This document shows positions 12,950 through 62,977 of a DNA stretch of 64,000 nt, one piece after another. The translations under genes and the position numbers were made by a program. The DNA lies in sequence record OR067838.1. One strand, 5' to 3'. How positions within the stretch are numbered: position 1 is the first letter of the stretch; each line of letters begins with the position of its first letter. This stretch comes from Escherichia phage KKP 3954. The notes under the pieces were generated by a model that worked only from the letters and a program-made list of their open reading frames with translations, was not told where the DNA came from and did not search any database.

Positions 12950-14728
12950 GTGTCGCACATTATAACTAAATATGGATTTGATGTTGATCTTAGCAAGGAA
13001 GGACATACAGGTTGTCCGCGCTGCATGAAAAATGGCAAGGATCGCTCTCGTAATAACCTGATGGTTTACGGATTAGATTCTAATGGAGAGCATAAAGGTG
13101 CTAAGTGCTTTGCGTGTGAATACACTATTCCTAGCGTAGAATGGTTACGAGAAAATGGTGAAGTTTTAGAAGAAGAGGAGGAGATTGTGGGTTCGGAATT
13201 TAATAAACAGATTCATCGTAAAATTGTTCAAGAAACATCAACCAACCCACGTGGTTATCGAGGCATTAAAGAAAAAGTTTCATCTTTCTATGGTGTTCGT
13301 TATGAATACCGTCAGGAAGGGGATCAGATGGTAGTAGAAAGTTGTTTATATCCGACTACCATCGGTAAAGAATTGGTTGGTTTTAAGCGTCGTATTCATC
13401 CTAAAGATTTCAGTAAACCTATTGGTCAAGTAGGTAAAGATGTAGATCTTTTTGGACAAATTCGTTTTGCAGACCGTTCTCATACTGTTGTAATTACAGG
13501 TGGTGAACACGATGCTCTGGCAGCTTATCAAATGCTATCTGAAAACTTGGACAGTAAATATGAGCTTCCAGCCGTAGTAAGTGGCACAACTGGTGAAACC
13601 AGTATGTATAAACAAGTTCAGGCACAATATCCTTTCTTTGAAAAATTTAAGAAGATTATTGTTTGCATGGATAACGACAAAGCAGGTAATGAGGCATTTG
13701 AAAATATTGTTAAGGTGCTGCCTCGTAACAAAGTCTACCGTATGCAGATGGATCTTAAGGATGCCAATCAGTATCTGGAAGAAGGCCGTGCAAAAGATTT
13801 CGTAAAAGCTTTTTGGAGTGCTCGTCTATACACCCCAGCAGGTGTTTATGCTTCTAATGTCTTGTATGAAGCTGCATTGGAATGCTTGGAATCCAAGATG
13901 ATTACCTTGCCTCCTTTTATGCGTGTTGCTGCAAACATGTTGGGTGGTGGTTTAGTAGAAGAAGAGATTACAGTCATCCTGGCAAAGACCAGTATCGGTA
14001 AAACTTTGATGGTGAACGAGATCACCAAACATATTATTGTTGCACACCCAGAACATACCCTAGGTATTCTGTCCTTGGAAGCGACTTATAAAAAGTATTC
14101 TCGTAACCTGTTATCCTCTTTCCTACACATTCCTCTACACAGGAAAACACCGGAAGAGAAATTTCAAATCTTGGAAGAGAATAAAGAAAAAATCCTAGAT
14201 TTTTACGAAAGAGAAGATGGATCACCACGTTTTTACGTGTGTGATGATCGTGGAGCAGATGTGGAGTCTATCAAAGAAAAAGTTTTGGAGATGATCATCT
14301 ATTTTGGAGTAACAATTCTTGTTATCGACCCTTATTCTGATTTGCTTTCTGGTATGGATGTTCAAGCCCAGGAAGAGTTAGCAACATGGTTGAAGCGAAT
14401 CATGAAAGAGTATGCTATAACTATTATCGTCATCTCACACGTTAAGAAGTCAGCTAATGGTGGCAATGAGCACTTAACAGAGGACGATGCAATGGGTAGT
14501 AGTTTCTTGGCTAAAGGTGCTGGTATTACCTTGGCTTTGGAACGAGATAAGGCTGCTGAAGATCCTGTAGAACGTAATACAACTCATTGCTTTATCCTAA
14601 AAAACCGTGAGTTCTCGGAGACTGGTCCAGCAGGGCAGTTTTACTATGACATTAGAACTGCAACTCTTCACGACAAAGAGCAGTATTTTAACAACCCTGC
14701 TAACTTACCTACGGATAGCAACTACTAA
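12950..14728 (+). CDS. DNA primase/helicase (T7 gp4-like: Zn-ribbon, TOPRIM-type primase, DnaB-like helicase)
   Basis: CPRC...CFAC zinc ribbon at N-terminus; P-loop ILAKTSIGKT in C-terminal half; GTG start after CAGGAG. Confidence 0.8.
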   Translation: MSHIITKYGFDVDLSKEGHTGCPRCMKNGKDRSRNNLMVYGLDSNGEHKGAKCFACEYTIPSVEWLRENGEVLEEEEEIVGSEFNKQIHRKIVQETSTNPRGYRGIKEKVSSFYGVRYEYRQEGDQMVVESCLYPTTIGKELVGFKRRIHPKDFSKPIGQVGKDVDLFGQIRFADRSHTVVITGGEHDALAAYQMLSENLDSKYELPAVVSGTTGETSMYKQVQAQYPFFEKFKKIIVCMDNDKAGNEAFENIVKVLPRNKVYRMQMDLKDANQYLEEGRAKDFVKAFWSARLYTPAGVYASNVLYEAALECLESKMITLPPFMRVAANMLGGGLVEEEITVILAKTSIGKTLMVNEITKHIIVAHPEHTLGILSLEATYKKYSRNLLSSFLHIPLHRKTPEEKFQILEENKEKILDFYEREDGSPRFYVCDDRGADVESIKEKVLEMIIYFGVTILVIDPYSDLLSGMDVQAQEELATWLKRIMKEYAITIIVISHVKKSANGGNEHLTEDDAMGSSFLAKGAGITLALERDKAAEDPVERNTTHCFILKNREFSETGPAGQFYYDIRTATLHDKEQYFNNPANLPTDSNY

Positions 14729-15261: not shown

Positions 15262-16056
15262 TTGAGCAAGTTGAACACACTTGATCAATATTACACTAAC
15301 CCCGCTTATGCGGGGTTCTTATGTGATAAGATCAAAGAAATTTTTGGAGAGGAAGCTAACTACGTAGAACCATCTGCGGGAGAAGGAGCTTTCTCTTCTT
15401 GTTTTAAAAACATAACTTCTTTTGATATTGACCCTAAGTTTGAAGATTGTATTGAGGCAGATTTTTTAGCTCAATCTGTTGAGTCTGTTGGTAGTGTAAC
15501 TGCTTTTGTCGGTAATCCTCCATTTGGAAAAAATGCTAGTCTTGCCATTAAATTCTTTAACCATTGTGCTGAAATGCTGGATAACGAAGGTGGTATTTGT
15601 TTTATCTTGCCTCGCACATTTCAAAAAATCTTTTTTGCACACAAACTAAATCCCCATATGCATCTTCTTTACGAAGAAGAATGTCCAAAAGGATCTTTTA
15701 TTCTTCATGGAGAACCTTGGGATGTTCCTTGTGTATTCCAGATATGGATTAAACGCAACGAGAAGCGTTCTCCCGTTGTTTTAGGAGAGAATCGACTATT
15801 CGTATTAGGTAACAGTAAAGACTACGATATAGCCGTTAGGAGAGCGGGAGCAAGTGCAGGTAAAGTGTTATCAGAAGAAGATTCTTTATCTGAAGCATCT
15901 ACCTATTTTTTAAAAGCCTTGACTTCTGATCTTAAAACGCGTATCATTGAGGCTTACCCGTTACTTAAAGCTGAAGCTAGTAAAACTGCGGGAGTAAGAA
16001 GTTTAAGTTTAAAAGAACTTCAGTGGGTTCTGGAGAACATTAGAAAGGAGGAATAG
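15262..16056 (+). CDS. DNA N6-adenine methyltransferase
   Basis: AdoMet motif EPSAGEGAF and catalytic NPPF motif; TTG start after AAGGAGG. Confidence 0.65.
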   Translation: MSKLNTLDQYYTNPAYAGFLCDKIKEIFGEEANYVEPSAGEGAFSSCFKNITSFDIDPKFEDCIEADFLAQSVESVGSVTAFVGNPPFGKNASLAIKFFNHCAEMLDNEGGICFILPRTFQKIFFAHKLNPHMHLLYEEECPKGSFILHGEPWDVPCVFQIWIKRNEKRSPVVLGENRLFVLGNSKDYDIAVRRAGASAGKVLSEEDSLSEASTYFLKALTSDLKTRIIEAYPLLKAEASKTAGVRSLSLKELQWVLENIRKEE

Positions 16057-18653
16057 TGAGTAAGTTTACATGGGATATTGAAGCAAACGGATTGTTGAAT
16101 AATGACACTATTGATTATTTAGCTAGTCCTTATCGTCTCAAAGACACATTTCAAATGCACTGTATTGTCTTAGAGAACCATGAAACAGGAGAAATAGTAG
16201 CTTTCCACGATGGCCCTAAATACATCTTTGATGGGCGTCCTTATGAAGAGTCAGATGGTAAATACACATATGTTCTTAAAGAGTATGTGGCGCAAGATTA
16301 CACACATTTTCAACTAAAAGATTTCCCAGACTTTATTAATCATGAAGGTTATTTTAAAGATAAGCCTGAATATCTGGTTGAAATGGCTGTGGCTCACAAC
16401 GGTATCAACTATGACTGGTTGGCTACAAAACTGTTTTATGGTTTAGATTACAGTGTTAAATATAATACGTGGGGCAAAAATAAGGTAAAACTTATTGACT
16501 CCTTGATTTTGAGTAAAGTGTTAAACCCAGATCGAAAGATTGAGGGCAAATCAGGACATAGTTTGGCAGCACTTTCTCGAAAGGCAGGGGGTGATGTAAA
16601 AATAGATTTCCGTAAAGAGATTCCAGAAGAAGATCGATTTAAGACTTTTGCTGCTGATATGCTTTATTACTGTATCTATGACAACAAAGCCAATACGAGC
16701 GTATATAATTACCTTATGGAAGAATGGGGTGATTATGATAAATGGGAAGGTCCATTTGAACTTGAACAACGTGTAGCAGACATTATTACACGCCAGGAAC
16801 ACCGTGGGTTTGCTTTTAACATGAAGCAAGCAGAAGAGAACCTTGCTTTTTTGGATGCAGAAATGGAGCGTCTTCGTTTACTCGTTGAGCCTATTTTGCC
16901 ACCTAAACCAGCAACAAAAGGTTATCTTAAGGCTTTTATTCCACCTAAGTTGCAAATTAAAAAGAACTTAGAGCCAACTAACCATATGATCAATTTTGCT
17001 AAGAAACATGATGGTCATTTGGAAGAGAGGGATGGAGATTGGTGGTTAGTGATGTTGGGGAAAGAATGGAAACTGCCAGTTGCAGCAGATGAGCCTTTGT
17101 GTGATCCTAATATCCCTGCAACATTGAACGATACTACCCATATTAAAAACTGGCTTGTAGGATTAGGTTGGGTACCGTCTGAATATAAAGATAAAGACTT
17201 GACTCTTAAATCTGGCACCAAGATTAAAAAGAGCGAGGAAGAACTTCAGAAAGGTATTCGAGCTTACGTTGAGCAAACTCTATCTTCTAATTTTTGTCAG
17301 GATCGTTGTGATCATCTGGAGTGCACACCGGAAACCTTGGAGAGGAAGATTCAAGAGCGTATAGCAAAAGGTAAAGGTCGCGGTCTTAAAGTATTGACTA
17401 ACCCATGTTTTACCAAAGGTCAGGAAAAAGAAATTTGTCCTAACCTGCAAGCTTTGGGTGAGAAATTTCCTTATGCTACACAGATTGTAGAATACTTAAC
17501 GTATAAACACCGTAGGAACTCTATTTTAGGTGGTGGTGCCGATTGGGAAGAAGACGAAGAAGATCAAGAATACGATAAAGGTTTCTTAGCCGCAGTAAGG
17601 GCGGATGGTCGTATTCCTACCCCAGCCGCTACATGTGATGCTGCAACCTCTCGTATGAAGCATAGATCTGTAGCTAATATTCCTCGTGTCACATCTTTGT
17701 TTGGATGGGAGATGCGTAACTTGTTTGGTGTAGAGGTTCCTAAATACTTCCAGATTGGCTACGACTTCGACTCTTTGGAAGCAAAAATTGAATCACACTA
17801 CTGTTGGCGGTACGAGCCGGAGCCACACGAATATTGTAACGCTCTGTTGTTAGAGAAACCTAACGATGTTCACACAATGATGGCAAAACGTATCACTGAA
17901 ACTATTGGACGTAAATTTGAACGTAGTCCTGCTAAATCTGTTAAGTATGGTATTACCTATGGTGCACAAGCCGACAAGGTTGCTAAAACAATTGGTAGCG
18001 ATAAGTTTACAGGTCAGTTGGTGTTCGATGCTTTCTGGGAAGCTGCCTTCCCACTGGCACGTCTTAAAGAACGTTTAAACGATTTCTGGGTTAAAACTGG
18101 TAAACAATATGTTTTGGGTATTGACGGTCGTAAGGTTCCTACTCGTTCTGCTCACGCGATTCTTAACTCTTTGTTCCAAAGCGGTGGGGTTATCTGTGCT
18201 AAACGTGCAATGGTTATTTATGACGACATGATCGAAGAAGAAGGGCTAAGTGTTGACTTCTTTAAAGATGACTGGAAGAATAAAGACTTCGTGCAACAAA
18301 TGATTGCATACCACGATGAAGCCCAGCTTGAAGTTTCTCGTAACCTTGTAGAATTCAAATGGTTTTCACCTGAATCATTAGGTTGGAAGAAAGTAGACGA
18401 TCCTGAAGAACAAAAGAAAATTGATAAAGAATGCCTTGCTAAAGTCGAAGAATGGAAGCATAATAAGGAAAAAGAGACAGGGCAAATTTGGGCTAACATT
18501 CATGAATCTCCCAAAGGTGGATGGTTTACAGCCTATAGTCGGGCAGGTGAACTTGCTGCTTTAGCTGTTACTAAGGCTGGAGAATTTTACAATCTTAACG
18601 TTCAGCTTACTGCCGGATATGATGTGGGTAATTCTTGGGCGTCCTGTCACTAG
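16056..18653 (+). CDS. DNA polymerase, family A, with 3'-5' exonuclease domain
   Basis: 865 aa; N-terminal exo motif WDIEANGL; size and context typical of phage PolA; GTG start after AAAGGAGG. Confidence 0.85.
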   Translation: MSKFTWDIEANGLLNNDTIDYLASPYRLKDTFQMHCIVLENHETGEIVAFHDGPKYIFDGRPYEESDGKYTYVLKEYVAQDYTHFQLKDFPDFINHEGYFKDKPEYLVEMAVAHNGINYDWLATKLFYGLDYSVKYNTWGKNKVKLIDSLILSKVLNPDRKIEGKSGHSLAALSRKAGGDVKIDFRKEIPEEDRFKTFAADMLYYCIYDNKANTSVYNYLMEEWGDYDKWEGPFELEQRVADIITRQEHRGFAFNMKQAEENLAFLDAEMERLRLLVEPILPPKPATKGYLKAFIPPKLQIKKNLEPTNHMINFAKKHDGHLEERDGDWWLVMLGKEWKLPVAADEPLCDPNIPATLNDTTHIKNWLVGLGWVPSEYKDKDLTLKSGTKIKKSEEELQKGIRAYVEQTLSSNFCQDRCDHLECTPETLERKIQERIAKGKGRGLKVLTNPCFTKGQEKEICPNLQALGEKFPYATQIVEYLTYKHRRNSILGGGADWEEDEEDQEYDKGFLAAVRADGRIPTPAATCDAATSRMKHRSVANIPRVTSLFGWEMRNLFGVEVPKYFQIGYDFDSLEAKIESHYCWRYEPEPHEYCNALLLEKPNDVHTMMAKRITETIGRKFERSPAKSVKYGITYGAQADKVAKTIGSDKFTGQLVFDAFWEAAFPLARLKERLNDFWVKTGKQYVLGIDGRKVPTRSAHAILNSLFQSGGVICAKRAMVIYDDMIEEEGLSVDFFKDDWKNKDFVQQMIAYHDEAQLEVSRNLVEFKWFSPESLGWKKVDDPEEQKKIDKECLAKVEEWKHNKEKETGQIWANIHESPKGGWFTAYSRAGELAALAVTKAGEFYNLNVQLTAGYDVGNSWASCH

Positions 18654-18671
18654 TTAACTTATTGTTTTATA

Positions 18672-18691
18672 AGGGGCTTCTGCCCCTTTAT
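18672..18691 (+). terminator. rho-independent terminator (AGGGGC-TTCT-GCCCCT then TTTAT)
   Basis: Read directly after polymerase stop. Confidence 0.55.
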
Positions 18692-18701
18692 AGGAGGAGA
18701 T

Positions 18702-18893
18702 ATGCATTACGATTTAGATTGTTTTGGTATGCCTTACCTACCAGATGAATTTGAAGGTGAAGAAGAACGTGAATGGGATGATGGGGATATCCGTTGTTGG
18801 TCTTGTGGTAAAGATATGTCTTACGAACAACATATGCACAATGATGGTTTCTGCATACATTGTTATAATGAAATTGATCTGGAGGAAGATTAA
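18702..18893 (+). CDS. small zinc-ribbon protein
   Basis: ORF track; GGAGGAG RBS; CWSC...CIHC. Confidence 0.45.
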   Translation: MHYDLDCFGMPYLPDEFEGEEEREWDDGDIRCWSCGKDMSYEQHMHNDGFCIHCYNEIDLEED

Positions 18894-19060
18894 TGGGAAA
18901 TGGTATCATGATTTGCTATAAAATTGTGCGTATTGTCGGAGACGAAGTTACCACTCGGTATTTTATGATAGAGTCTCAAGCCGATGAGGTTTACAATGAC
19001 TGGCTTGAAAAAGGTGGATACGATTTTGTATCTAAAGAAACTTTCCGTTTAGAAGTATAA
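18893..19060 (+). CDS. small hypothetical protein (55 aa; below ORF-track cutoff)
   Basis: ATG 18893 overlapping previous stop, GGAGGA RBS 7 nt upstream. Confidence 0.35.
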   Translation: MGNGIMICYKIVRIVGDEVTTRYFMIESQADEVYNDWLEKGGYDFVSKETFRLEV

Positions 19061-19070
19061 GGAGAAAACA

Positions 19071-19289
19071 ATGCGTAAATTAGTGAGCTTTAATGTTTCA
19101 ATTCTTGTTGATGAACAAAATGAAGATGTTATTAAAGGTCTTGCAAATAAGATTGCAGGTGGAATGACGGAAGCTGAAGTGTGGGAAGAATGTGCTCGAC
19201 TTTATGAGGAAGGTGTTATTGAGGTCTTGGGGGATGAGATTAATATGGACGATGTTGTAAAAGTAACTGTGGAGCGTATCAATGACTAA
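19071..19289 (+). CDS. small acidic hypothetical protein
   Basis: ORF track; AAGGAGAAA RBS. Confidence 0.45.
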   Translation: MRKLVSFNVSILVDEQNEDVIKGLANKIAGGMTEAEVWEECARLYEEGVIEVLGDEINMDDVVKVTVERIND

Positions 19290-19875
19290 ATCAAAACAAA
19301 TCAATATTGCCAAAGAGATTCTTACCGTATTAAAGATCGCTGATCCTAATTCTGTCTTGGCTGGCGGTGCTGTTCGTGATTGGCGTATTCTTGATATTGC
19401 TGGACGTGATCTGGATTTCTACACATCCCTTCCTGCACATCGATCAGAAGAGCAAATACAAGAATTGATTGCATCTGCTTTGATGGGAACTAATGTTCGT
19501 AAACTAGGAAACAAAGAGGCTTCTGACAATTATGAGGGTGTTACTGGTCTTAAACACGTTTTTGAGTTTGAACGTGATGGTCAGCTTTGCAACCTTATGA
19601 TTATGGAACCAAGCGTAATGACAACCTTTCTAAATGAGTTTGATCTGTCCATCTGCCAGGCTGCATTTGATGGGAAGGATTGCTATTATTCTAAAGATTT
19701 TGAAACAACCTTGGAAACAGGGATCTGCTTCTTGCACAAAGATGTTAGAGAAGATGCCAAACACGTTATTAAAATTGCTACACGTTTCCCATATCTTCGT
19801 TTTGTGAAAGAGGTTAAGGTTCCACGTCCACCTCAAGTAGATACCAGATTAGAAGAAGATGATATTCCTTGGTAA
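19282..19875 (+). CDS. putative nucleotidyltransferase-fold protein
   Basis: GGAVRDWRILDIAGRDLDF fits the pol-beta superfamily pattern G[GS]...DxD. Confidence 0.45.
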   Translation: MTKSKQINIAKEILTVLKIADPNSVLAGGAVRDWRILDIAGRDLDFYTSLPAHRSEEQIQELIASALMGTNVRKLGNKEASDNYEGVTGLKHVFEFERDGQLCNLMIMEPSVMTTFLNEFDLSICQAAFDGKDCYYSKDFETTLETGICFLHKDVREDAKHVIKIATRFPYLRFVKEVKVPRPPQVDTRLEEDDIPW

Positions 19876-19882
19876 TTAAAGC

Positions 19883-19912
19883 TTGACAATATTAAACATT
19901 TTATGATAGGAT
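19883..19912 (+). promoter_or_regulatory. sigma70-like promoter (TTGACA; -10 TAGGAT), possibly giving a leaderless or very short-leader transcript for 19921 gene
   Basis: TTGACA 19883-19888; no SD before ATG 19921. Confidence 0.35.
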
Positions 19913-19920
19913 AGCATTCA

Positions 19921-20313
19921 ATGACTGAACGTTCTAAGATAGCTGTTGAAACTGTTTATGGAAACTATACCAGTTTAACACTAGTTGAGAAAAATGTTGT
20001 AGGTCTTGACAACTCTTTTTATTTTCAGATTTTGGTTATTCAAGGTGGAAACAAGAAGCTAACTGCTCGTGTTGAAGCATCTGAAATAATTGAAACCACT
20101 GTTACAAACAAAGAATTCATTTCACTGCAAGATACAATCCGAAACGTTATAGACGAAGAAGGCAAAGCTGCCACAATTAAACTCGGAGGTTTTCCAGTGC
20201 AAATAGTTCATTTCCCTAATGGTGAAATTGGAGTTGGAATAGGTAAAGGTAAATACCTGTTAGAGCAAGATGATATGGAAAGACTCCGCTCTTTCTGTGC
20301 AAAATTAATGTAA
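19921..20313 (+). CDS. hypothetical protein
   Basis: ORF track. Confidence 0.45.
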   Translation: MTERSKIAVETVYGNYTSLTLVEKNVVGLDNSFYFQILVIQGGNKKLTARVEASEIIETTVTNKEFISLQDTIRNVIDEEGKAATIKLGGFPVQIVHFPNGEIGVGIGKGKYLLEQDDMERLRSFCAKLM

Positions 20314-20329
20314 TGTAGAGGAGATAATA

Positions 20330-21217
20330 ATGTCCGTAATTAATACTGAAACTGATCGTAAAGGCAAAACCGTAACTTATGCAACTGGTATCGTAGACTA
20401 CGTTAAACTGGATAAATTCGCCGAACCTAAAACTTTTCATTGGGAAGGAAAAACGATTGTTTCAACTCACCGAGCTTCTCTTGTTCTGAAAGAGAAAGGT
20501 GCTAAACCAGATGAGAAAGGTGTTTGGATTTCTCTTGGTGACATTGAACTGAAAGAAGGTTATGAAAACCTGCAAGTCAAAGAAGGTGATAACTGGATCA
20601 CTATTGAAAAAGGTGTAGAAGTAAGTATTGATATTGATCGCGTTGATAATAAAGGCGGTAAAACTTACTACAATACTAAAAAATCTCGTATTACAGTATT
20701 GTCTACCGATGGTGTTCAGAAGTCTAACAAATCTTCTGGCAATAAGGGTTCCAACGATGCTGCTCCTAAGCAGTCCTATAAAAAACGTGATACTGTAGGT
20801 CTGGAAACTGGTCACGCAGTAAATGGTGCACTGGAACTGATTCGTAATGGTGTTAAAGGCGATGCTTTCGATATCGCTGGGGTTGTTCAATCTGCAACTG
20901 TCACACTGAAATCGGAAATTGCTGAATCTCGTGGCGTTGATATTAATGATTATGATCTTGGGGCATCTGTTGGTCACGCTATCCTCAATGCTTGTAAAGA
21001 CCATACCGTTAAGACTGTATCTGTAGAAGATCTGATTGATTCTGCTCGTAAAGTTCTGGCTCTGTCTGATAAAGTTGCTGCTGCCATTCGTGGTTCCGCA
21101 GAACAGCCTAAGAAAGAAGAGAAGAAAGAAGTTAAGAAACCTGAACCACAACCAGAACCAACTCCAAGTAATCAAGAAGAACCTCCAATGGACTTCGACG
21201 ATGATATTCCATTCTGA
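20330..21217 (+). CDS. ssb: single-stranded DNA-binding protein with E. coli SSB-like acidic C-terminal tail
   Basis: C-terminus EPPMDFDDDIPF is the same as the E. coli SSB tail; strong RBS GAGGAG. Confidence 0.7.
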   Translation: MSVINTETDRKGKTVTYATGIVDYVKLDKFAEPKTFHWEGKTIVSTHRASLVLKEKGAKPDEKGVWISLGDIELKEGYENLQVKEGDNWITIEKGVEVSIDIDRVDNKGGKTYYNTKKSRITVLSTDGVQKSNKSSGNKGSNDAAPKQSYKKRDTVGLETGHAVNGALELIRNGVKGDAFDIAGVVQSATVTLKSEIAESRGVDINDYDLGASVGHAILNACKDHTVKTVSVEDLIDSARKVLALSDKVAAAIRGSAEQPKKEEKKEVKKPEPQPEPTPSNQEEPPMDFDDDIPF

Positions 21218-21251
21218 TCTTATTGATTTATAAAGAGTTTTTATAAAAGAA

Positions 21252-21280
21252 AAGGGAACCCGCAAAGGTTCCCTTTTTTA
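21252..21280. terminator. bidirectional rho-independent terminator between convergent plus and minus gene blocks
   Basis: AAGGGAACC-CGCAAA-GGTTCCCTT flanked by A-tract and T-tract. Confidence 0.65.
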
Positions 21281-61053: not shown

Positions 61054-61132
61054 TGGAGGCGGGAATTGGATTTGAACCAATGATCTCCAGCATATGAAAC
61101 TGGCGAGGACGACCAGACTCCTCTATCCCGCT
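61054..61132 (-). tRNA. tRNA-Met (anticodon CAT), initiator-like
   Basis: Manual fold: T-arm ATTGG-TTCAAAT-CCAAT, anticodon loop TTCATAT; 3' CCA encoded; ends approximate by 1-2 nt. Confidence 0.6.
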
Positions 61133-61138
61133 ATCATG

Positions 61139-61208
61139 TATCCCGTGCTGGATTCGAACCAGCGTCACAATAAATTGTGGATCTCTTATCCTGTAAGTCT
61201 AACGGGAA
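61139..61208 (-). tRNA. tRNA-like gene, aberrant (anticodon arm has only a 4-nt loop); possible pseudogene
   Basis: Good T-arm GCTGG-TTCGAAT-CCAGC and 6-bp acceptor stem, but anticodon region folds as CACAA-TTTA-TTGTG. Confidence 0.4.
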
Positions 61209-61210
61209 AC

Positions 61211-61284
61211 TGGTTGTTTCGACAAGAATCGAACTTGTGTCTCACGATTATCAGTCGTGGGTTCTACCATTGAACTACGAAACA
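61211..61284 (-). tRNA. tRNA-Ile (anticodon GAT)
   Basis: Manual cloverleaf: acceptor TGTTTCG/CGAAACA, loop CTGATAA, T-arm ACAAG-TTCGATT-CTTGT, CCA encoded. Confidence 0.7.
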
Positions 61285-61290
61285 TTTAAT

Positions 61291-61367
61291 TGGTCGGAAT
61301 TGCAGGATTCGAACCTGCGACCCTACGCTCCCAAAGCGTATGCTCTACCAAACTGAGCTAAATTCCG
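61291..61367 (-). tRNA. tRNA-Pro (anticodon TGG)
   Basis: Manual cloverleaf: acceptor CGGAATT/AATTCCG, loop TTTGGGA, T-arm GCAGG-TTCGAAT-CCTGC. Confidence 0.7.
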
Positions 61368-61372
61368 TTATA

Positions 61373-61448
61373 TGGCTGGTCTGTCTGGATTTGAACCAAA
61401 CCTACGACAGTCAAAGTGTCGTGTGCTACCGGACTACACTACAAACCA
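61373..61448 (-). tRNA. tRNA-Gln (anticodon TTG)
   Basis: Manual cloverleaf: anticodon stem CGACA/TGTCG, loop CTTTGAC. Confidence 0.6.
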
Positions 61449-61546
61449 ATAAATCATTTAATGAAGGGCAACCAGAAGAAGTGTGAGAGAAGGAGAAAAC
61501 CATGAGTAAAAGAGAAAGTTTTCTGGCAACCCTTTATTAAATAATT

Positions 61547-61620
61547 TGGAGCGTTCTACGAGGATCGAACTCGTGCCGCCGACTTGGAAGGACGGAATGC
61601 TACCGCTACACCAAGAACGC
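61547..61620 (-). tRNA. tRNA-Gly (anticodon TCC)
   Basis: Manual cloverleaf: acceptor GCGTTCT/AGAACGC, loop CTTCCAA, discriminator U. Confidence 0.6.
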
Positions 61621-61631
61621 CCTATATATTT

Positions 61632-61661
61632 ACTATACTACATTTTACTATTTGTTGTCAA
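61632..61661 (-). promoter_or_regulatory. sigma70-like promoter on minus strand (TTGACA, 18-nt spacer, TATAGT) for the downstream tRNA genes
   Basis: Hexamers read from reverse complement just upstream of tRNA-Gly. Confidence 0.5.
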
Positions 61662-61933
61662 GACTTTTATTGATTGGGACAGTGACGAGTATCCCGTTGG
61701 GTGACTAGCCCTACGTTCGGTAAGCTAACTTAAAATAATACAAAACCAAAGTCAAATATTATTCTTCGTTGCTGTCGATGGGAGAGCCGCTTCTCATTTT
61801 GCCCCATCCAACCCTACTCCGGTCAAGTTTCGGGTGACTCTTTTTGTGATCAACACAATACTAAGAACACTGTCTTTCGAGCAGACCTTGTGCACAGGAA
61901 CGACGATCAATCACAATGCTCTTAATGTTGTGT

Positions 61934-62008
61934 TGGTGCTCCCACACTGAATCGAACAGAGATCCACGGATTACAAAACCGTTGTAATAGCCATTATACT
62001 ATAGGAGC
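61934..62008 (-). tRNA. tRNA-Thr (anticodon TGT)
   Basis: Manual cloverleaf: acceptor GCTCCTA/TGGGAGC, loop TTTGTAA. Confidence 0.6.
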
Positions 62009-62014
62009 AATGCT

Positions 62015-62091
62015 GGGACTCGGCAGGATTCGATACCTGCAATTCCAGAAGCCTATTGGCGACTGGGGGTTTACCTTAACTCTACAAGTCC
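62015..62091 (-). tRNA. tRNA-like gene, anticodon unresolved (irregular anticodon arm, 8-nt T-loop)
   Basis: 7-bp acceptor stem GGACTTG/CGAGTCC and T-arm GCAGG-TATCGAAT-CCTGC, but no canonical 5-bp/7-nt anticodon arm. Confidence 0.4.
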
Positions 62092-62098
62092 ATAATTC

Positions 62099-62184
62099 TG
62101 GCGATGAGTATAGGATTCGAACCTATATTGTTCTTTCGAACACGGATTAACAGTCCGCCGCTTAAACCGTTCAGCCAACTCATC
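62099..62184 (-). tRNA. type-II (long variable arm) tRNA with Asn anticodon GTT
   Basis: Perfect 7-bp acceptor GATGAGT/ACTCATC, discriminator G, CCA encoded; anticodon arm CGGACTGTTAATCCG; variable arm GTTC-GAAA-GAAC. Confidence 0.6.
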
Positions 62185-62190
62185 TTAATT

Positions 62191-62278
62191 TGGTGGTGAG
62201 TGATGGAGTCGAACCACCCGAATCGCAATGATAACAGATTTACAGTCTGCCCCGCTACCCCTACGGAATTAACTCACC
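62191..62278 (-). tRNA. tRNA-Tyr (anticodon GTA), type II
   Basis: Anticodon arm GCAGA-CTGTAAA-TCTGT; discriminator A; CCA encoded. Confidence 0.65.
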
Positions 62279-62409
62279 TAAATACTAATATTTAAATTCT
62301 TTTTAAAATAGCCAGTGTTCGCACCACTAACTATGAGTTATCGGTAAGATGGTGGGGGGCTATCTTCCGAAAGTTTACTCTATTAAAGTAAGCTACATTA
62401 AAAAGAACT

Positions 62410-62495
62410 TGGCGGTAGATGTAGGACTCGAACCTACACGCCGTTTCCGACTACAGTTTAGCAAACTGTCGTGGCTACCATTTCACCAATCTACC
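62410..62495 (-). tRNA. tRNA-Ser (anticodon GCT), type II
   Basis: Anticodon arm ACAGT-TTGCTAA-ACTGT; long variable arm; discriminator G. Confidence 0.7.
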
Positions 62496-62500
62496 TAATC

Positions 62501-62591
62501 TGGCGGAAGGAGGGAGAGTCGAACTCCCAAGGCTCTTTCAAGCTCGGCGGTTTTCAAGACCGTTTTCGTCGCCACATCGATTTGCCCTTCC
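62501..62591 (-). tRNA. tRNA-Ser (anticodon TGA), type II
   Basis: Anticodon loop CTTGAAA; T-arm GGGAG-TTCGACT-CTCCC; long variable arm. Confidence 0.65.
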
Positions 62592-62599
62592 ATACTTAT

Positions 62600-62629
62600 A
62601 ATCTAACATAAAATAATGATTGTTGTCAA
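62600..62629 (-). promoter_or_regulatory. possible sigma70-like promoter on minus strand (TTGACA; -10 TAGATT) upstream of tRNA-Ser
   Basis: Hexamers read from reverse complement. Confidence 0.35.
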
Positions 62630-62825
62630 TACTTTTTTAAAACATTTTACCATGAATGGTGACTCCACCAACCCCCGTTCTCCACGAACGGTGCTCTTCG
62701 AGCATTTATGTCTTCTAATATAACCGTGGCCTTTGTTTATAATGTCTGACATACTTGCCTCATTCTCTGCCACCATGATCAGTAGTGGGTTCAAATCACT
62801 TGAGCTAATTCATGTTAAAATGTTC

Positions 62826-62900
62826 TGGTGTCTTTACAAGGAATCGAACCTTGACTAAGAGTTTAGAAGACTCCTGTGCTATCCATTACACCATAAAGAC
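62826..62900 (-). tRNA. tRNA-Arg (anticodon TCT)
   Basis: Acceptor GTCTTTA/TAAAGAC; loop CTTCTAA; T-arm CAAGG-TTCGATT-CCTTG. Confidence 0.65.
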
Positions 62901-62902
62901 GT

Positions 62903-62977
62903 TGGTGGCCCTGGCTGGTTTCGATCCAGCTACCTATCGGTTATGAGCCGACAGCTCTCCCATTGAGCTACAGGGCC
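62903..62977 (-). tRNA. tRNA with anticodon CAT, Ile2 (lysidine)-type by resemblance to E. coli ileX; alternatively elongator Met
   Basis: Acceptor GGCCCTG/CAGGGCC; loop CTCATAA; 5' and 3' ends resemble E. coli tRNA-Ile2. Confidence 0.6.

Follow-up and report, generated by a model that had tools for sequence, protein, structure and literature searches.

In a 64,000-nt stretch of Escherichia phage KKP 3954 (record OR067838.1; hereafter, the window), the gene at 19282-19875 (+) encodes a 197-aa protein with the nucleotidyltransferase (NTase) fold and a disordered C-terminal tail that ends much like SSB, the protein that binds single-stranded DNA. We tentatively read this NTase as a template-independent 3'-end nucleotidyltransferase tethered to proteins of the replisome or to SSB partner proteins, a reading that we put somewhat short of an even chance. 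It is based on the fold, the catalytic motif, the domains that are missing, the gene neighborhood, and the conservation of the tail. Catalytic activity, recruitment through the tail, and the nature of the substrate are what we infer from these features.

Hundreds of phage genomes carry small genes annotated as "tRNA nucleotidyltransferase/poly(A) polymerase," among them those of Phapecoctavirus, rV5-like phages, ICP1, and many Vibrio phages, with sister forms in Autographiviridae. The tRNA label on these genes is probably misleading. If a narrower version of our reading, described below, is true, a thousand-cluster family of small phage proteins that look like CCA enzymes would represent an activity that works at replication forks or modifies DNA ends, rather than a tRNA enzyme. 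Action on the 3' ends of DNA or primers at forks would be an unrecognized accessory activity of phage replisomes, and the protein would also provide an example of enzyme recruitment by mimicry of the SSB tail. The basic identification as an NTase is not new, because orthologues already carry such names in GenBank. What this analysis adds is an architecture cut down to a minimum of domains, which speaks against the annotated function; the size of the family and its restriction to phages; a measure of how often replication genes lie nearby; and the SSB-mimicking tail.

Fold, catalytic motif, and missing domains

AlphaFold2 (AF2), given an alignment of 128 sequences, models the NTase with high confidence (predicted local distance difference test [pLDDT], 92.8; predicted template-modeling [TM] score, 0.85). 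When the model was compared to the PDB with Foldseek, the top 26 matches were all class II CCA-, CC-, and A-adding enzymes, with a probability of 1.00, E values of 1e-5 to 2e-3, ~190 aligned columns, query-normalized TM scores (TMq) of 0.45 to 0.57, and 13 to 18% identity. They include the 3wfo-3wfs series, the T. maritima CCA-adding enzyme (3h37/3h39/5hc9), and 1vfg/4wc2, and they rank above TdT, Pol mu, and TUTases, which are far weaker matches. The protein also matches PHROGs 10174 (E = 3e-63) and 1614, both named "nucleotidyltransferase." An earlier note, made from the letters of the window, had called an NTase fold and had proposed structure prediction as the test that could refute it; the predicted structure has the NTase fold.

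That note had also listed signaling-nucleotide synthases and toxin/antitoxin components as options. An enzyme that makes signaling nucleotides, a sponge that binds them, an anti-defense enzyme resembling Gad2, or an NTase of a toxin-antitoxin system (MNT/AbiEii/MenT) would account for the generic Pol-beta G[GS]...DxD motif, and one phage anti-defense protein with an NTase domain exists, the 400-aa anti-Gabija protein Gad2 (bioRxiv 10.1101/2023.05.01.538930). We nevertheless regard all of these as very improbable, and the two options of the note find no support. PADLOC gave no match for the NTase or its neighbors; the best folds are class II, with the MNT-type TM1012 at rank 49 and no cGAS/CD-NTase among the 50 matches listed; and no HEPN or effector partner adjoins the gene, the neighbors of which are replication proteins. 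A link to Gad2 was sought by tblastn with a 400-aa family member (P0077), a search that did not involve Gad2 itself; it returned the usual family only and no SPbeta-like Bacillus phage, and the link was dropped.

At the level of sequence, profiles detect class II kinship at motif A only. Searching the PDB with the single protein gave noise only (an abscisic-acid receptor at E = 0.16), and the family profile retrieved CCA-adding enzymes and the E. coli poly(A) polymerase (3aqk) at E values of 0.002 to 0.03, over positions 9 to 76 at most. With hhalign, whether a single sequence or a 63-sequence profile was used, the alignment to E. coli Cca covered only residues 25 to 49, which correspond to motif A.

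Motif A itself (residues 25 to 47, VLAGGAVRDWRILDIAGRDLDFY; 19354-19422, +) aligns with the corresponding motif in CCA-adding enzymes and in poly(A) polymerase and contains the class II signature GGAVRD...DxD, with GGAVRDWRILDIAGRDLD aligning to GGAVRDALLGLPVKDRD of E. coli Cca. The glycine turn is formed by G28 and G29 (A27-G28-G29), and the metal-binding carboxylates are D43 and D45 (D43-L44-D45-F46), in agreement with the hG[GS] turn and the [DE]h[DE]h strand after it that mark the Pol-beta superfamily. The G-G...D-x-D pattern, first picked out in the earlier note, is no chance match: in the alignment of 128 relatives, which outside the close clade share 23 to 38% identity with the window protein, G28, G29, D43, and D45 are 100% conserved. 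A27, A30, R32, W34, Y84, and K164 are each at least 96% conserved (K164, 97%). With its glycine turn and DxD pair invariant, the active site is likely to be functional, and the NTase is probably a catalytically active enzyme. A candidate for the third catalytic carboxylate is E95, in the VFEFE strand at residues 93 to 97 (19558-19572, +; AF2 strand 90 to 98). H161-K164 (19762-19773, +), in the helix at residues 160 to 168, may correspond to the basic residues that class II enzymes have in motif D (EDxxR..R), as judged from conservation, the AF2 model, and a low-confidence forced hhalign alignment.

The NTase thus shares the head fold and motif A with class II tRNA NTases and poly(A) polymerase (PF01743; the Aquifex A-adding enzyme 1vfg, Thermotoga 3h39/5hc9, E. 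coli Cca, and PcnB). An N-terminal helix, a strand, and GGAVRD...DxD are common to both, the first neck elements have a plausible counterpart, and the two-metal, template-independent transfer of nucleotides to a 3'-OH is presumably shared as well. Compared to these enzymes, however, the NTase is half-sized, almost restricted to phages, linked to replication genes, and equipped with an SSB-like tail.

The reduction is apparent from several comparisons. The NTase has 197 aa versus 340 to 460 aa in its structural matches, for which the target-normalized TM scores are 0.22 to 0.32. Its neck is small in the AF2 model, consisting of a hairpin at residues 127 to 136 and helices at 138 to 146 and 160 to 168, and the modeled protein is a head with a rudimentary neck that lacks the tRNA-holding body and tail domains. 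Pfam PolyA_pol (PF01743) scores 15.5 bits versus a cutoff of 23 bits (E = 0.023; profile positions 3 to 51 of 126), and only 18 of the 128 family members reach an E value of 0.01 or lower. Whereas nearly all retrieved Cca homologues with PF01743 also carry the RNA-binding domain PF12627, the NTase has no match to it.

In class II enzymes, the RRD of motif B serves ribose recognition, while motif D acts as an amino-acid template for CTP and ATP. In a forced, low-confidence alignment to Cca, EFDLSICQAAF falls on RRDLTINALAQ, which puts EFD in the place of RRD; the family consensus at this position is F..SIC, which is noncharged and has no conserved basic pair. In the same forced alignment, REDAKH..K falls on GEDPLR..R of motif D (E157-D158-A-K-H161..K164 in the window protein). 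Conservation across the family is limited to H/Y161 and K164 and does not extend to the ED pair. As the body, the tail domain, and RRD are all missing, a conventional CCA-adding enzyme is unlikely.

These losses bear directly on the annotated function, a phage tRNA nucleotidyltransferase that adds or repairs 3'-CCA on tRNAs of the phage or its host, such as those damaged by host nucleases. In favor of it, CCA-, CC-, and A-adding enzymes are the nearest solved structures, motif A has the class II signature, the phage carries ten tRNA genes, and GenBank annotators chose this name; moreover, another protein might perhaps replace the missing body and tail domains. We still consider this function unlikely. 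The ten tRNA genes (two for Met and one each for Ile, Pro, Gln, Gly, Thr, Asn, Ser, and Arg; 61054-62977, -) all encode the 3'-terminal CCA, and therefore no de novo CCA addition is needed. They had been described as adjacent to the NTase gene, but they are 41 kb away, separated from it by the whole head, tail, and tail-fiber module. The E. coli host has its own Cca, and the consistent neighbors of the NTase gene are replication genes rather than RNA-repair genes.

A further argument comes from Vibrio phage 1.253.O, whose 47-kb record, deposited as a partial genome, has a clear family member and no tRNA gene detected by ARAGORN. There, the family gene adjoins a 5'-3' exonuclease gene, and three genes away lies the gene for a 686-aa protein annotated as "ribonuclease H-like domain protein," which is probably a DNA polymerase. 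The tRNA-related role once thought conceivable thus loses its basis, the supposed adjacency to tRNA genes, and is weakened further by the lost domains, the encoded CCA, and this tRNA-less family member. The NTase may still repair damaged tRNA ends, although nothing specifically supports this.

The C-terminal tail and the proposed mechanism

The last 17 residues of the NTase (residues 181 to 197, PPQVDTRLEEDDIPW; 19822-19872, +) form a tail of low pLDDT that is predicted to be disordered, with values of 76 and then 55 in the last two 10-residue blocks. The end of the tail, ...RLEEDDIPW, has the layout of an SSB C-terminus (SSB-Ct), sharing with the SSB tip a disordered linker, acidic residues, a Pro, and a C-terminal aromatic residue, and the last five residues, DDIPW (19858-19872, +), mimic the SSB tip DDDIPF. 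DDDIPF is the conserved C-terminal hexapeptide by which SSB recruits its partners (PMC5872125). The DDIPW tip is kept in ten homologues down to 59% identity (DSFPW in one), while the linker before it varies in both sequence and length. A tip that is conserved while its linker varies is the hallmark of short linear docking motifs.

The same type of tail is present on a second protein of the region. Two genes downstream, a 295-aa protein annotated as "hypothetical" (20330-21217, +) ends in the 12 residues EPPMDFDDDIPF, with the tip DFDDDIPF, exactly as E. coli K-12 SSB does. No OB or SSB Pfam domain was detected in this SSB-like protein, and SSB profiles match its tail region only; it is probably a noncanonical phage SSB that plugs into the host SSB partner network. 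Among the 232 ORFs (open reading frames) of at least 50 aa in the window, an acidic, aromatic-terminated tail is found in only two, the NTase and the SSB-like protein. The tail-coding segments of the two genes share an 11-nt string, GATGATATTCC. This identity is too short to separate two origins of the tail, duplication of the 3' end of an SSB gene and codon constraint. In the rV5-like phage Antha (L002, 6026-6973), the SSB-like protein has an internal DFDDDIPF followed by 15 residues (APIGLQYGRNFLHCF). The extra residues would bury the docking tip, and they may reflect a frameshift, from sequencing or annotation, or a real variant.

Tails of a related kind occur in other branches of the family, which end in ESPDVFNF, QDIEDFEF, EADELVEW, IFDDAGF, SFSDDDF, or DESWETPF. 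In a sample of 47 nonredundant IMG/VR loci, a C-terminal aromatic residue is found in 16 of the 47 family members versus 60 of 622 other genes of the same loci (Fisher P = 1.5e-5), and a tail both acidic and aromatic is found in 7 of 47 versus 30 of 622 (P = 0.011). The other genes with acidic-aromatic tails include those for SSB-like proteins and DnaB-type helicase-primases. Related loci also encode proteins of 205 to 245 aa with ...PW or ...PF tails, which have no Pfam match and whose identity as SSBs is not confirmed. In phage T7, the acidic, Phe-terminated tails of gp2.5 and gp4 bind the polymerase, and these tails are comparable to those of the SSB-like proteins and DnaB-type helicases in related loci. 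In contrast to SSB and the T7 proteins, the NTase that bears the tail is an enzyme outside both the SSBs and the helicases.

In the mechanism that we propose, a Pol-beta enzyme of the class II branch has been reduced to a catalytic head with a rudimentary neck, and the Phapecoctavirus lineage has gained the disordered acidic tail ending in DDIPW. This tail would plug into SSB-Ct pockets on phage replisome proteins or on host SSB partners, and docking would raise the local concentration of the enzyme where replication intermediates expose single-stranded DNA. At these sites D43 and D45, together with two metal ions, would add nucleotides without a template to a free 3'-OH, whether on a primer or at the end of DNA or RNA; it is delivery to SSB-Ct pockets that would make primers and such ends in replication intermediates the sites of action. 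A narrower version, which we find rather doubtful, holds that the tail is a copy of the SSB docking peptide that brings the enzyme to sites of SSB action, in the phage replisome or at host SSB partners such as Exo I, RecQ, PriA, or chi. The enzyme would then modify the 3' ends of primers or phage DNA, for instance, to shield them from 3'-5' exonucleases, or would rival host SSB in binding these partners. For experiments, two clean handles are available in the tail peptide and the D43/D45 pair.

Several points weigh against a tethered 3'-end nucleotidyltransferase. The terminal residue is Trp in the NTase and Phe in SSB. The tail is restricted by lineage: an SSB-like tip is missing from most family members, and the C-terminus of the rV5-like orthologues reads ...SEEFKI. 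Recruitment by an SSB-type tail therefore cannot be the general mode of the family. The protein is acidic (pI 5.2), which is unexpected for a stand-alone nucleic-acid binder. The column of the candidate carboxylate E95 holds E in 76, N in 20, and D in 14 of the 128 sequences (E/D, 70%; N, 16%), and the map of motifs B and D is tentative, as it comes from a forced global hhalign alignment to Cca with a probability of 2.6%. The gene neighborhood described below is an association with replication genes and not a function. Finally, our literature searches found no characterized family member beyond the toxicity screen of the Klebsiella phage protein Gp22 and passing remarks.

The replication gene neighborhood

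The NTase gene lies in the replication region, as had been noted from the sequence, 629 nt 3' of the gene for a family A DNA polymerase (Pol A; 16056-18653, +), which is transcribed in the same direction, and two genes 5' of the SSB-like gene. The order on this strand is primase-helicase (12950-14728; annotated as "putative primase/helicase" in phage ukendt), a small ORF, an N6-adenine methyltransferase, Pol A, three small ORFs, the NTase, a 130-aa protein, and the 295-aa SSB-like protein, after which come convergent tail genes. In rV5-like phages, the order Pol A, NTase, 130-aa protein, and SSB-like protein is kept at only 37% identity.

To quantify the association, genes within four positions of the NTase were compared across the 47 IMG/VR loci. 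A DnaB-type helicase-primase is present in 17, a family A polymerase in 16, and a 5'-3' exonuclease in 4; 27 of the 47 loci have at least one of the three, always on the same strand. Members of the family keep company with replication genes of the T7 type. These counts are lower bounds, because BLAST clustering misses divergent members. As a rough prior, which is our own estimate with no computed control, a random gene in a 45- to 150-kb phage would lie that near a polymerase in ~3 to 13% of cases.

The gene that directly follows the NTase gene encodes the conserved 130-aa protein (phrog_16560; 19921-20313, +), which occupies position +1 in 5 loci and is conserved at this place in the rV5/phAPEC8 group. 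Its AF2 model (pLDDT, 89.7) consists of two beta-sheet-plus-helix repeats, and its PDB matches are led by PUR-alpha repeat I-II, with Whirly at rank 11 (E values of 1.6e-3 to 5e-2; TM scores of 0.32 to 0.40). We tentatively suggest from this model that the protein has a PUR/Whirly-like fold and binds single-stranded nucleic acid. If this assignment holds, the region would have three genes in a row whose products handle single-stranded nucleic acid.

The NTase ORF itself stands as first delimited, with an ATG start, a length of 197 aa, the stop codon included in its coordinates, and a sequence identical to that quoted in the earlier note. A Shine-Dalgarno-like GGAG, read directly from the sequence, is located 7 nt 5' of the ATG (19271-19274, +). 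The last 8 nt of the upstream 72-aa ORF (19071-19289) overlap the start of the NTase gene, an arrangement suggestive of translational coupling. The 45 nt that separate the NTase stop from the next ORF contain a sigma-70-like site (19883-19912, +) that reads TTGACA-18 nt-TAGGAT and has the TG of an extended minus-10; it is the best of 7 in the region, where the number of sites is not above that in shuffled controls. A terminator-like hairpin with a 12-bp stem and a T-run (21250-21277, -) lies between the convergent genes for the SSB-like protein and an 891-aa tail protein.

The window belongs to Phapecoctavirus, the phAPEC8-like, ~150-kb E. coli myoviruses of the Stephanstirmvirinae. Its segment from 18600 to 20400 is matched by 64 phage records at 95 to 99% identity, in which the orthologues are already named "putative tRNA nucleotidyl transferase / poly(A) polymerase" or "nucleotidyltransferase." Three records labeled as Campylobacter, Acinetobacter, and Klebsiella phages (MG065650.1, OP562383.1, and MH252123.1) encode a protein 97 to 98% identical to that of the E. 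coli Phapecoctavirus, and their host labels look doubtful. In phage ukendt, the DNA polymerase coding sequence (L001, 4803-8372) spans 3,570 nt versus 2,598 nt in the window (16056-18653); the 972-nt insertion, possibly an intein or homing element, is absent from the window. In one subfamily, a 400-aa protein with four CapR-homology domains (PF21817) is encoded up to four genes upstream of the NTase (L042, 2273-3472, +, and three other IMG/VR loci).

Family distribution and sister nucleotidyltransferases

A profile search was performed over 1.84 billion representative proteins clustered at 50% identity. It retrieved 1,046 relatives at E values of 1e-3 or lower and 335 at 1e-10 or lower, nearly all of them stand-alone proteins of 170 to 230 aa that match from residue 1 to about residue 177. 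A scan of IMG/VR yielded 85 confirmed loci of the NTase family, and a scan of one genome per species for 185,579 bacterial and archaeal species yielded 6, all on contigs of metagenome-assembled genomes; both counts are lower bounds because the scan pattern is narrow. The family occurs almost only in phage sequence.

Beyond this family, small NTases are found in Autographiviridae and other phages, including Gp22 of Klebsiella phage fHe-Kpn01 and the proteins of Pectobacterium phage PP2, Pseudomonas phages LKD16 and phiNV3, and Caulobacter phage Cd1. Labeled "Poly A polymerase head domain" or "nucleotidyltransferase," they are similar in size (167 to 206 aa), in predicted fold (BFVD TMq, 0.50 to 0.66), and in having their genes beside that for the DNA polymerase. 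Gp22, the only sister compared to the profile of the window family, aligns at motif A only; it has 182 aa, ends in ...EVRDAY without a DDIP[FW] tip, and is encoded by a gene that overlaps the end of the DNA polymerase gene. It is also the only relative with an experimental datum, being toxic when expressed in E. coli (PMC7291057). Small NTase genes have been noted in Autographiviridae with no function assigned (PMC8472413), and those of Gordonclarkvirinae have been noted "with their DNA replication genes," again with no function assigned (PMC11990801).

The toxicity of Gp22, a structurally similar, class II-like protein, and the presence of E. coli poly(A) polymerase (3aqk) among the profile matches are suggestive of a host-directed enzyme. 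Such an enzyme would extend the 3' ends of host mRNA or tRNA in the manner of poly(A) polymerase or MenT, speeding decay or blocking translation, and its position in a replication operon would reflect only the timing of early or middle expression. We think it improbable that the NTase acts in this way. Gp22 is a distant sister, an enzyme with DNA ends as its substrate would be just as likely to prove toxic upon overexpression, and takeover of the host leaves unexplained both the SSB-like tail and the repeated occurrence of Pol A and primase-helicase genes nearby on the same strand.

Ten longer family members (257 to 400 aa) were searched for domain fusions that might give a functional clue, but no informative Pfam domain was found. 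Weak matches to DUF2779 in two distant homologues (E of about 0.006, below the cutoff) were rejected as noise, and a precomputed match of homologue P0009 to PF26128 was likewise set aside after hmmscan failed to reproduce it. In Vibrio phage ICP1_2012_A, the homologue ORF223 (L003, 4956-5375) is truncated to ~139 aa, comprises the head domain only, and ends in ...SVCMAW. In several ICP1 isolates, the annotation divides the homologue into two ORFs, or its match is broken into two pieces, a pattern suggestive of a gene that is split or decaying.

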